Shown here one piece after another: positions 40,493 through 43,367 of a DNA stretch of 64,000 bases. The position numbers were made by a program, and so were the translations under genes. The DNA is from Candidatus Woesearchaeota archaeon (GTDB taxonomy: Archaea; Nanobdellota; Nanobdellia; Woesearchaeales; ARS49). Below the pieces are notes generated by a model. That model did no database searches and was not told the DNA's origin. It was given only the letters and a program-made list of their open reading frames with translations. The DNA lies in NCBI GenBank assembly GCA_037445145.1, contig JBBILB010000002.1:15137-79136 (forward strand), in the 5' to 3' direction. Each line of letters opens with the position of its first letter. The first letter of the stretch is position 1.

Positions 40493-40828
40493 TCACGGCT
40501 GCTTGATGTAAACATACTTTGTTTCGCCCTCGGCAATAGACAACGGCTCAGTCGTCCACCCGCTCTGCACAGGCTGAATTGTTGAGTTTGCAGGCACTGG
40601 TTTCGGCCTTACAGCTACATTTGAGTTGTTCTGAGGCAATGGAGCCAGCGGGTTTGGCATGGCCTCATTGACTGCCGGCTTTGGCTCAGGCGCAGCAGGA
40701 GACTCTGTGACTGTTGCAGCAGGAGCAGGCTCATAAATGCTTTCTTCAGGCTTAGGTTCCTCCTCTGCAAACTCCACACATCCTGCAAGAAACGCAAAAA
40801 GCACAAGGACTGCAATGATTTTTTTCAT
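40493..40828 (-). CDS. Small proline-rich lipobox protein
   Basis: MKKIIAVLVLFAFLAGC, with the canonical L-A-G-C lipobox. Confidence 0.6.
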   Translation of the reverse strand: MKKIIAVLVLFAFLAGCVEFAEEEPKPEESIYEPAPAATVTESPAAPEPKPAVNEAMPNPLAPLPQNNSNVAVRPKPVPANSTIQPVQSGWTTEPLSIAEGETKYVYIKQP

Positions 40829-40856
40829 GCCCGCCCAAAAGCGCTTTCAGAGATAT

Positions 40857-41612
40857 TTAAGCTTTTCTCCTGAGCCAGAACAACAAGGCAACACCTGCAA
40901 TGAATACAGGGATGTTAAGCGCCTGGCCGAGCGTCAGCGGACCGACAAACGCAGTCGGCTCTCTGAAATACTCAGTTATGAAGCGGAACACGGAATAAAG
41001 GATAAGGAACAGGGCAAAAAGCGAGCCGCGGGCCATCCTTTTCTGCCCTATGCTGAGCAGAACAAGGAAGATGACCACGTTGTAAGCAGCCTCGTACAAT
41101 TGAGACGGGTGCCTGTAGCCCTCTGCACCAGGGAACTTGACTGCCCACGGAACATCAGCAATCCTTCCATAAAGCTCGCCGTTGATGAAGTTGCCAATCC
41201 TTCCAAGCGCCTGCCCAAGCGCAATAGGGATAATGCAAATGTCGCAGAGTTCCAGGAAATTTATTTTTCTTTTTCGCGCAAACAAATAGCCCGCGACAAG
41301 CCCGCCAAGAAGCCCGCCGTGGAAGCTCAACCCGCCGTGCCATATTGCAATTATCTCGCCGGGATTTGCAAAATAATATGCCGGCTCCCACACCAAAACC
41401 TCAAACAGGCGCGCGCCAATAATAACCCCTGCAACAAGCCACACCATCAGCCAGTCAACATCATTATCAGTCATCCTAATGATATTACGCCTTGCAGAAC
41501 GCCTTACATACCAGTAAACAAAGAGAAAACTAAGCGCCCACATCACGCCATACCACCTTACCTGCAAAGGACCAAGCTCAAGCAGGACAGGATTGATTGT
41601 GTGCTCAAACAT
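40857..41612 (-). CDS. lgt: Prolipoprotein diacylglyceryl transferase
   Basis: GPLQVRWYGVMWALSF, IWHGGLSFHGGLLGG, LGRIGNFINGELYGR and YRHPSQLYEAAYN are the Lgt signature blocks in the right order. Trimmed to MFEHTINP... Confidence 0.85.
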   Translation of the reverse strand: MFEHTINPVLLELGPLQVRWYGVMWALSFLFVYWYVRRSARRNIIRMTDNDVDWLMVWLVAGVIIGARLFEVLVWEPAYYFANPGEIIAIWHGGLSFHGGLLGGLVAGYLFARKRKINFLELCDICIIPIALGQALGRIGNFINGELYGRIADVPWAVKFPGAEGYRHPSQLYEAAYNVVIFLVLLSIGQKRMARGSLFALFLILYSVFRFITEYFREPTAFVGPLTLGQALNIPVFIAGVALLFWLRRKA

Positions 41613-42408
41613 TCTTAGCCCCCCTTGCCACAAAAGCGATGTATGCGCGCGACCACGCAAGAAGCACGAGCAGAATTATTGCACCAGCAATGAGAAGGAC
41701 AATCCTGCCTCCGACCGAAACCACTTTAAGGACAGAATTGCCAGCAAAAAACTGGGCAAGAACAACAGCAGCAGCGGGAACAAACACAAAGGCATTCCTG
41801 ATTCCTGACACAAATGCATTTCTTATGCTCAGCAGGGGATACGAGACAACCGCAAAATAGGCAACAAGCCCGAGAAGAACATACATGACAGCTCCCGGCT
41901 GAGTCCTTCCTGCTCCGATAAATATCCCCCTAAGCTCAAGAGCAAGCGCTGCGAAATGCCAGAGGGAGTAAAGCGCAAACCAAAGAATGTTTACGCGGGC
42001 AAAATGCAACAGGAAAGCCCGCCAGTGCATTTTCAGCCCAGAAAGCATTCCTGCAGCGCGCCAGGCAAATCCCTGAAGCACGCAGTACAGCAAAAAGACA
42101 GCAAGCACAAGCACAACGAGCAGGATAATGAACTGCATTACGTATTTGCTGACAGGCGGGTGGAAAAGCACGCTGACAACAGCAGGCCTTGCCCCGCCTT
42201 CTGCAGCACGCAGCTGGCCTGACACCAGCATTCCGATTGCAACAGTGTGGTCCGAGAGCAGGCTTAGCAATGGAGACGTCATAAAGCCGTAAAGAACAAA
42301 AAAGGCAATGTCAAGGGTTGCGCTTAAGGGAAGATACCACTTAACTGAAAAAACAGCCTTCCAGGCATTAATCCATTCCCTTACAGGCGCGTATTTTGTC
42401 CAGTTCAT
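41605..42408 (-). CDS. Polytopic membrane protein, unknown function
   Basis: 267-aa hydrophobic ORF overlapping the lgt start by 8 nt, probably the same operon. Confidence 0.55.
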   Translation of the reverse strand: MNWTKYAPVREWINAWKAVFSVKWYLPLSATLDIAFFVLYGFMTSPLLSLLSDHTVAIGMLVSGQLRAAEGGARPAVVSVLFHPPVSKYVMQFIILLVVLVLAVFLLYCVLQGFAWRAAGMLSGLKMHWRAFLLHFARVNILWFALYSLWHFAALALELRGIFIGAGRTQPGAVMYVLLGLVAYFAVVSYPLLSIRNAFVSGIRNAFVFVPAAAVVLAQFFAGNSVLKVVSVGGRIVLLIAGAIILLVLLAWSRAYIAFVARGAKNV

Positions 42409-42547
42409 TTTTATTGCGCAGGAATGAGCGACTGCGGCGCTGGCAGTGGAAACAGCGTGTGAGCATTCATAACGACAAACAAGAGGGCAAGAAATGCAAG
42501 GATCACAACAATAATGAAAAAAAAGTCAGCCTTGTTCATCAGCGCCT

Positions 42548-42859
42548 TTACGGCCACCAGCAGCACTTGATGTACGGCAATAGCCCCTGCTCGCAAACCC
42601 CTCCTGCAGCGATATACTGGTTGGCTGTCCTCAAGTCAGTCACTGCATTGCCGCGCTGGCATGCATTCTGCACAGGAACAAGCGTGACCTCGCCAGTCAC
42701 TGCCGGCAGGTTGCCCGTAAAGAACATTACGAGAATAACTATCACGAAAATCGCAACAATGCCCCACGTGGCAAGCCAGACATCCCTTGATGCCCCAGCA
42801 GTGTCATCATCAAGCTGGACAGGCATTGTTGGACGGAACTCGAGTTTCTTCTTGACCAT
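42548..42859 (-). CDS. Small signal-anchored Cys-containing protein
   Basis: 103 aa with TM helix WLATWGIVAIFVIVILVMFF. Confidence 0.45.
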   Translation of the reverse strand: MVKKKLEFRPTMPVQLDDDTAGASRDVWLATWGIVAIFVIVILVMFFTGNLPAVTGEVTLVPVQNACQRGNAVTDLRTANQYIAAGGVCEQGLLPYIKCCWWP

Positions 42860-42935
42860 TCAGGTTCACCCCTTTGAGCTAAAGCTTTGTTTCATGGCAA
42901 CATTCGGGTTTATATAGTTTTCGCTTAGCGCGCTT

Positions 42936-43367
42936 TCACGAAAGGTCTGCGAATTCGCCGTACGGGCTTATAAGCTTCCAGCCGTTATCCTTAAGCCTGA
43001 GCGTAAGCGTCTGGTTAGCGAGCGCAAATTTGCCGTCATACATCTCAACCTCTACAGCTGCCGAAACAGCAGCCTGGCTTCCTGTGTTTGACTGCTCTGA
43101 TGCAAACACAAGCCTTATGCCCTTCGCGTTGCGGTAAAATCCGCTGACGTACTGCGCAAAGCTCTTTTCTGTGTGCGCAGTTGGCTCCACCGCCTTCCAA
43201 CCGTCAGACACGAGCGTGTACATAGTCTTGTAGTCTCTGTCCCCCCATGCGGCATAGTACTTTTGCACGATTTCCACAGGAGTCCCTTCCACAAATGGCG
43301 TTGGCTCCCTTGGCGCGCACGCAGCGAGAAGTGCAAGCAAAAACAAGACAACAATAACTTTGTTCAT
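42936..43367 (-). CDS. Lipobox protein with NTF2/SnoaL-like appearance
   Basis: MNKVIVVLFLLALLAAC (L-A-A-C), then VQKYYAAWGDRDYKTMYTLVSDGW. Confidence 0.6.
   Translation of the reverse strand: MNKVIVVLFLLALLAACAPREPTPFVEGTPVEIVQKYYAAWGDRDYKTMYTLVSDGWKAVEPTAHTEKSFAQYVSGFYRNAKGIRLVFASEQSNTGSQAAVSAAVEVEMYDGKFALANQTLTLRLKDNGWKLISPYGEFADLS

Follow-up and report, generated by a model that had tools for sequence, protein, structure and literature searches.

The stretch of DNA analysed here, 64,000 nucleotides (nt) of contig JBBILB010000002.1 of a Candidatus Woesearchaeota genome (GCA_037445145.1, here G000) and referred to below as the window, raises the question of what a gene for a bacterial-type prolipoprotein diacylglyceryl transferase (lgt; 40857–41612, minus strand) is doing in an archaeon, in a string of genes that also encodes small lipobox proteins. 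The answer proposed, to which we assign a probability of about 0.85, is that this ~0.9-Mb member of the Woesearchaeota (DPANN) carries out the bacterial lipoprotein pathway as far as its second step, with Lgt acting first and signal peptidase II (Lsp) next. Archaea are described as being without Lgt, and likewise without Lsp, in papers from 2025 (Hong et al.; PMC12462473) and 2026 (mBio), the survey in the latter being based on RefSeq genomes as of February 2021. A full-text literature search found no paper tying Lgt or Lsp to DPANN, and the comparative-genomics papers on DPANN and Woesearchaeota (PMC8204110, PMC8421398) never mention lipoproteins. The nearest homologues of the Lgt are Candidatus Woesearchaeota proteins that already carry the label prolipoprotein diacylglyceryl transferase in NCBI records; what is new is thus the biological reading and not the gene.

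A preliminary description of this DNA had recognized the 251-amino-acid (aa) open reading frame (ORF) as Lgt from its signature blocks, and profile comparison bore this out. The protein matched PF01790 with 260.2 bits (cut-off 24.9) over the full length of the model (positions 1–240 of 240), TIGR00544 with 227.8 bits (cut-off 118.9) and Escherichia coli Lgt (5azb) with 167 bits, and contained the blocks FHGGLLG, GRIGNFINGELYG and RHPSQLYE. The length of 251 aa is counted from the ATG; a start at the TTG that precedes it by 48 nt would lengthen the protein to 267 aa, but homologues begin at MFEH... Greedy longest-ORF calling selects instead a 293-aa antisense ORF (40737–41618, plus strand), which is longer than lgt and was rejected as a shadow ORF by its codon-usage score.

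The residues that E. coli Lgt does not tolerate being mutated, including R143, N146, E151 and G154 (Mao et al. 2016; PMC4728403), were mapped onto the protein via the 5azb alignment, and E. coli numbering is used throughout. Both the H103-G-G-L motif and the signature G142-R-L-G-N-F-I-N-G-E-L-W-G154 are matched (as FHGGLL and GRIGNFINGELYG, respectively), and the residues Y26, Y235, R239, E243 and R246 of the central cavity and its hydrogen-bond network correspond to Y21, Y206, R210, E214 and R217 of the woesearchaeal protein. In an alignment of 145 Lgt relatives that have diverged to ~40–50 % identity, Y26, G104, D129, R143, N146, E151, G154, H196, Y235, R239 and E243 were invariant and H103 was kept in 144; R246 was either R or K, the other residues of the cavity network being invariant. 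One row (L007) of alignments A1 and A2 was contributed by an unpublished genome, G242. By these sequence measures the ORF is a genuine full-length Lgt of bacterial type, with all the essential residues in place.

The preliminary description had seen no Lsp-like gene. This was correct for the window and wrong for the genome: Lsp was missed because its gene lies on another contig (C6, 1909–2382), where it encodes a protein of 157 aa that matched PF01252 with 116.3 bits and TIGR00077 with 101.8 bits (cut-off 73.95). The catalytic residues D124 and D143 of Pseudomonas aeruginosa LspA align to its D119 and D138. The search of the genome for Lsp and Lnt that had been recommended was thus successful for Lsp, whilst Lnt (TIGR00546) gave no match in G000, in its congener G158 or in the closed genomes G004, G009 and G024 of the order. 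A pathway of two steps does not require Lnt.

Candidate substrates were sought by their lipoboxes. Genes of G000 were called by codon-usage score (921 genes), and sites were taken as the residue after a [LVIFMA][ASTVIGL][GAS] triplet closing an uncharged hydrophobic stretch that has a basic N-terminus before it and a non-hydrophobic segment after it. This stricter filter and the coding-potential gene caller were adopted because a loose G+LPP-style expression that accepted any residue at +1 let too much through (519 matches, Cys enriched only 2-fold). Cysteine occupied the +1 position at 19 of 210 sites in G000 (899 kb) compared with 2.8 expected (p = 1e-10), and at 18 sites in G004 (700 kb), a closed genome that also has both Lgt and Lsp, compared with 1.7 expected (p = 2e-13). 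Three relatives without either enzyme showed no such excess: one site against 0.6 expected in G058 (491 kb, p = 0.47), three against 1.1 in G030 (534 kb, p = 0.10) and one against 1.2 in G084 (505 kb, p = 0.70). G058 is a single contig (C1) of 490,885 bp with a GC content of 31.6 %. Non-gene ORFs of G000 likewise had no excess (nine of 240 sites, 12 expected). Among the five genomes compared, the enrichment, of ~7- to 10-fold, was therefore confined to the two that encode Lgt and Lsp. The 19 lipoboxes of G000, which answer the call of the preliminary description for a genome-wide count and a comparison with chance, conform to the bacterial pattern, reading L-[ASTGIV]-[GAS]-C, and five of them lie within the window.

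The distribution of the two enzymes was surveyed in a phylum-wide sample of 301 genomes, each at least 90 % complete. Of these, 264 had Lgt and 265 had Lsp; two unpublished genomes, G242 and G243, add two to each count, contribute otherwise just the alignment row mentioned above and were both excluded from the tree described below. In the window's family, all 23 genomes had both enzymes. Of the listed genomes that gave no match, eight from other orders have neither enzyme (G018, G030, G058, G084, G088, G091, G105 and G141); within the window's order most genomes without one enzyme keep the other and only G295 is without both. No lgt frame in any of the genomes listed was broken by an internal stop. 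Both enzymes are thus close to universal in a lineage that ranks among the largest radiations of archaea, contrary to recent specialist statements.

In a phylogenetic tree of 108 Lgt rows, the 35 archaeal sequences were split by one branch from the 73 bacterial ones (SH-aLRT 99), and inside the archaeal clade both the window's genus (99) and its family (98) were recovered. Since the clade tracks genus and family and occurrence is near-universal, these data point to a single old acquisition followed by vertical descent, and not to contamination or recent transfer; rather than having been transferred sporadically into one contig, Lgt and Lsp appear to be present in nearly all of the phylum and to be passed on by vertical descent. 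The phylogeny that had been proposed as a way to find the donor thus yielded one archaeal clade but no donor: with 73 bacterial rows drawn from among the matches listed, mostly of Pseudomonadota, Thermodesulfobacteriota and Nitrospirota, no bacterial sister group or donor lineage was named by the tree, because the bacterial rows were limited by the peptide patterns used to collect them. A separate observation concerns an Lgt (L047, 3001–3789) on an 18-kb contig assigned to an uncultured Methanosarcinales archaeon (CAZTTX010000014.1), which fell inside the woesearchaeal clade next to Nanoarchaeota and Woesearchaeota rows; this contig is either mis-binned or records a transfer between archaea.

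In the proposed pathway, the exported substrates would be proteins whose N-terminal signal peptide closes with L-[AST]-[GAS]-C. Lgt would draw on a phosphatidylglycerol-type lipid that comes from a host or neighbour and attach its lipid moiety to the thiol of the lipobox cysteine. Lsp, encoded on contig C6, would then remove the signal peptide by cleavage immediately ahead of this cysteine once it is lipidated. As Lnt was not found, the lipoproteins would be of the diacyl type and not triacylated. We infer the activity of both enzymes and the identity of the lipid from sequence; the same sequences directly display both genes as present and intact, with their catalytic residues conserved, across the lineage and with a vertical pattern of inheritance.

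Lgt is otherwise a bacterial marker, and the 899 kb of G000, although rated complete, come as 25 contigs of a metagenome-type assembly, so a bacterial contaminant or a mis-binned contig has to be considered. The gene lies, however, on an 85-kb contig together with archaeal translation genes: aEF-1α (TIGR00483, 697 bits) at a distance of ~7 kb, uS10 of eukaryotic/archaeal type at 8 kb and aEF-2 (TIGR00490, 941 bits) at ~10 kb. An L7Ae match (98 bits) was found at 27271–27549 (plus strand) of the window, and the GC content is even across the window. The claim of the preliminary description that aEF2, aEF1a and L7Ae share the contig, and that contamination is no explanation, accordingly stands; as to its intron-containing tRNAs, a tRNA at 19765–19894 (plus strand) extends over 130 nt by Rfam with the whole 71-position model matched, was not reported by ARAGORN and fits an intron-containing archaeal tRNA. 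Together with the occurrence of Lgt in most of the related genomes, closed single-contig ones included, and the monophyly of the archaeal clade, this excludes contamination, for which we see practically no chance, and Lgt is native to the archaeal genome. That the gene is instead left over from an old transfer, decaying or inactive, is very improbable: frames are intact throughout, 12 functional residues are invariant or nearly so over 145 sequences, and Lsp and its substrates have been kept in genomes of 0.6–1 Mb that are under strong reduction.

A third explanation leaves Lgt intact and gives the lipoboxes to another system. According to Hong et al. (PMC12462473), AliA and AliB (arCOG02177 and arCOG02178; HVO_2859 and HVO_2611) serve archaeal lipidation, AliA attaches archaeol, haloarchaea thereby use a family other than Lgt, and AliA occurs in DPANN ‘with some gaps’; Lgt and Lsp could then be redundant or serve another purpose. 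The same paper notes that some archaeal genomes have many predicted lipoproteins but neither AliA nor AliB, a gap of which woesearchaeal Lgt and Lsp could explain a part. PF25231 (DUF7847), a weak Atlas lead toward AliA, had no match in the five genomes searched. As the lipobox enrichment tracks the presence of Lgt and Lsp in the five genomes compared, the catalytic residues of both are strictly conserved and a lipobox protein gene begins 28 nt after lgt, we regard sole processing by an AliA-type system as improbable. Several points nevertheless weigh against the Lgt/Lsp pathway as proposed here. An AliA-type (arCOG02177) archaeal lipidation pathway may operate in parallel. The lipobox filter was home-made and is not SignalP or LipoP, and the lipobox comparison covered five genomes, two of its three negatives being from one family. 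The tree was reconstructed by a quick method, and its bacterial rows are biased, having come from two peptide patterns among the matches listed, with no candidate phyla radiation (CPR) or Bacillota sequences. Finally, known DPANN lipids are archaeal and host-derived, and an Lgt built for sn-1,2-diacyl-glycerol-3-phosphate lipids would face the opposite glycerol stereochemistry in archaeal lipids.

The last point leads to the donor lipid. The Lgt pocket was solved with ester-linked phosphatidylglycerol (PG), yet no genes for lipid synthesis were found in the host: G000 gave no match for GGGP synthase (PF01884), CDP-alcohol phosphatidyltransferase (PF01066), CdsA/CarS (PF01148), a GpsA-type domain (PF01210) or a domain of the glycerol-1-phosphate (G1P) dehydrogenase type (PF13685). 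With no enzymes for the backbone, for CDP activation or for the head group found, the donor would therefore be scavenged, and the lipid on woesearchaeal lipoproteins would reveal both the composition of the membrane and the hosts. We put ordinary ester-linked PG taken from bacteria at about even odds. The lean to this lipid has three grounds. A single I/L change was the one substitution that set the archaeal Lgt sequences apart from the bacterial ones, and the L6-7 loop (the W256/Y259 region) showed no clade-specific change, its shortness being common to the close bacterial relatives. Y26, which in E. coli Lgt hydrogen-bonds to the sn-2 ester oxygen (PMC4728403), is invariant. In addition, G000 encodes a PlsC-family acyltransferase of 198 aa (C6, 34715–35311, equivalent to L173, 2216–2812; minus strand) that matched PF01553 with 63.6 bits and T. 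maritima PlsC (5kym) with E = 5e-14, and whose best NCBIfam matches were to the acyltransferase domain of acyl-ACP--phospholipid O-acyltransferase (Aas). PF01553 was present in 51 of the 101 genomes of the order, several relatives having tandem pairs, and among the control genomes only the ten bacterial ones had a match.

The acyltransferase gene overlaps a 497-aa ORF (L173, 726–2219, minus strand) with a weakly PaaK-like N-terminus and faces a gene for an ATG22-like transporter of the major facilitator superfamily (MFS; L173, 2905–4152, plus strand). This layout on C6 recalls an LplT–Aas unit for lysophospholipid salvage, a candidate that was set aside as unconfirmed: the transporter is no more specific than a generic or ATG22-like MFS protein, and neither Pfam nor the PDB yielded a match to the 497-aa ORF.

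The opposite possibility is that a bacterial Lgt has crossed the lipid divide, using scavenged archaetidylglycerol, with its ether linkages and G1P backbone, to make S-archaeol lipoproteins like those of Haloferax but without AliA. Besides the lack of lipid synthesis genes found in an archaeal host, it is favoured by the finding, cited in PMC8421398, that cultured DPANN take archaeal lipids from their archaeal hosts, and by the lack of matches in G000 or its genus to SLT-type murein-lytic domains, whose presence has been suggested to indicate bacterial hosts (PMC8204110). The unsplit Lgt residues, the invariant contact to an ester oxygen and the acyltransferase for ester lipids in half of the order argue the other way, as does the use of a different enzyme family for archaeol transfer in haloarchaea (PMC12462473). 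Archaetidylglycerol is thus a tentative second candidate for the donor, with the chances below even. A more specific proposal for the ester lipid is that an unmodified bacterial Lgt has been kept because the membranes of Woesearchaeales contain ester-linked PG, scavenged from bacterial hosts or neighbours and maintained by a PlsC-type acyltransferase in about half of the order's genomes. We consider this rather doubtful as it stands; if true, a large archaeal lineage would have a partly bacterial membrane with S-diacylglyceryl lipoproteins, and the lipid divide would have been breached in nature, and long ago.

The preliminary description had placed lgt in a minus-strand string between two small proteins with the lipoboxes L-A-G-C and L-A-A-C, and this arrangement, too, was recovered. 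The string (40238–46025) comprises genes for a P-type ATPase, a 143-aa lipobox protein, a 103-aa protein, a polytopic membrane protein of 267 aa (TM267), Lgt, a 111-aa lipobox protein and a glutaredoxin. The stop codon of TM267 (41605–42408, minus strand) overlaps the ATG of lgt by 8 nt (ATGTTTGA), so that lgt is predicted to be translationally coupled to TM267; downstream, a spacer of 28 nt separates lgt from the 111-aa lipoprotein gene and one of 6 nt separates the latter from the glutaredoxin gene. By its spacing, the segment from TM267 to the glutaredoxin forms a tight, operon-like minus-strand string.

The 111-aa predicted lipoprotein (40493–40828, minus strand) starts MKKIIAVLVLFAFLAGC, with the cysteine of its L-A-G-C lipobox at position 17, and its gene is kept in the lgt loci of four relatives of the same genus. 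The 143-aa predicted lipoprotein (42936–43367, minus strand) starts MNKVIVVLFLLALLAAC, also has its cysteine (L-A-A-C) at position 17 and contains a SnoaL/NTF2-like domain (PF13474, 25.2 bits); both proteins passed the strict lipobox filter. At the head of the string, a calcium P-type ATPase of the SERCA/PMR1 type (872 aa, 43407–46025, minus strand) matched TIGR01116 with 766 bits, above the cut-off. The glutaredoxin (82 aa, 40238–40486, minus strand; PF00462, 74.8 bits) is the last gene of the string, and one was found near lgt in nine of 29 relatives' loci. The ORF upstream of TM267 (42548–42859, minus strand) encodes a small, Cys-rich, single-pass membrane protein of 103 aa with the C-terminal pattern ..CQRG..CEQG..CCWWP, for which no family was found beyond a weak TatA-like match; it is kept just upstream of TM267 in the loci of seven relatives.

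TM267, which had been described as an uncharacterized neighbour overlapping the start of lgt, had no match in Pfam or NCBIfam and belongs to an archaea-only family of 728 representative clusters, whose neighbours in the Atlas were archaeal hypothetical clusters only. The family occurs in 66 of the 301 genomes of the phylum and in 21 of the 23 of the window's family; in ~22 genomes of the latter, as well as in G049, the TM267 gene immediately precedes lgt. It is thus tied to Lgt within the window's family and is not a general component of the pathway. The AlphaFold 2 model of the protein (pLDDT 84.7) had no significant match in the PDB by Foldseek (best E = 0.18), whilst VIA-align gave Z scores of 13.3 for yeast PNS1, 12.0 for human CTL1 and 11.4 for CysZ, the next being 8.1 at most. 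The predicted fold aligns with the structures of CTL1, Pns1 and CysZ (7WWB, 9F63 and 3TX3) over 200–232 of its 267 residues, at an identity of 8–13 %, and helical bundles often reach such Z scores by chance. TM267 is probably a membrane partner co-expressed with Lgt, with a transporter-like fold that may resemble that of CTL, Pns1 and CysZ.

The three further lipobox proteins that the preliminary description had listed in the window, at 20650, 61255 and 61970, proved to be real. One (20650–21450, plus strand), a predicted lipoprotein that starts MKRLLLIFLLLSAC, passed the strict filter with L-S-A-C and has no confident domain. The other two are adjacent on the minus strand: a predicted lipoprotein of 316 aa (60305–61255), which starts MRLSKFIVFLFLVVFLGSC and combines L-G-S-C with a PKD domain (PF00801, 25.7 bits), and one of 242 aa (61242–61970), which starts MNKISMIVGIIFLATVLAAC and combines L-A-A-C with membership of the SIMPL/DUF541 family (PF04402, 170 bits). 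Adjoining this pair are two proteins (58850–59461 and 59458–60192, both minus strand) with RskA_C (anti-sigma-K factor C-terminal) domains, a module of bacterial type, each of which has an N-terminal hydrophobic segment.

Compared with known systems, the closest likeness is to bacterial Lgt (5AZB/5AZC), with which the woesearchaeal protein shares the full-length match, the HGGL motif, the G142–G154 signature and the residues R143, R239, E243 and Y26. It is ~45–48 % identical to the Lgt of Nitrospirota, Thermodesulfobacteriota and Pseudomonadota among the matches listed, and differs from the E. coli enzyme in a periplasmic head region that is ~22 residues shorter, as in its closest bacterial relatives; the host differs in being an archaeon in which no phospholipid synthesis was found. 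The woesearchaeal Lsp resembles bacterial LspA (MEROPS A8; 5DIR, 6RYO and 9EMZ) in both catalytic Asp residues, in the GNxxDR and FNxAD motifs and in its size of 157 aa, but belongs to an archaeal host and is encoded on a different contig from lgt. The archaeal AliA belongs to another protein family than Lgt, with a marginal similarity (HHpred 29 %, according to PMC12462473), whereas the outcome expected of the AliA/AliB system and of the woesearchaeal one is the same, a lipid thioether on the lipobox cysteine of an archaeal surface protein.

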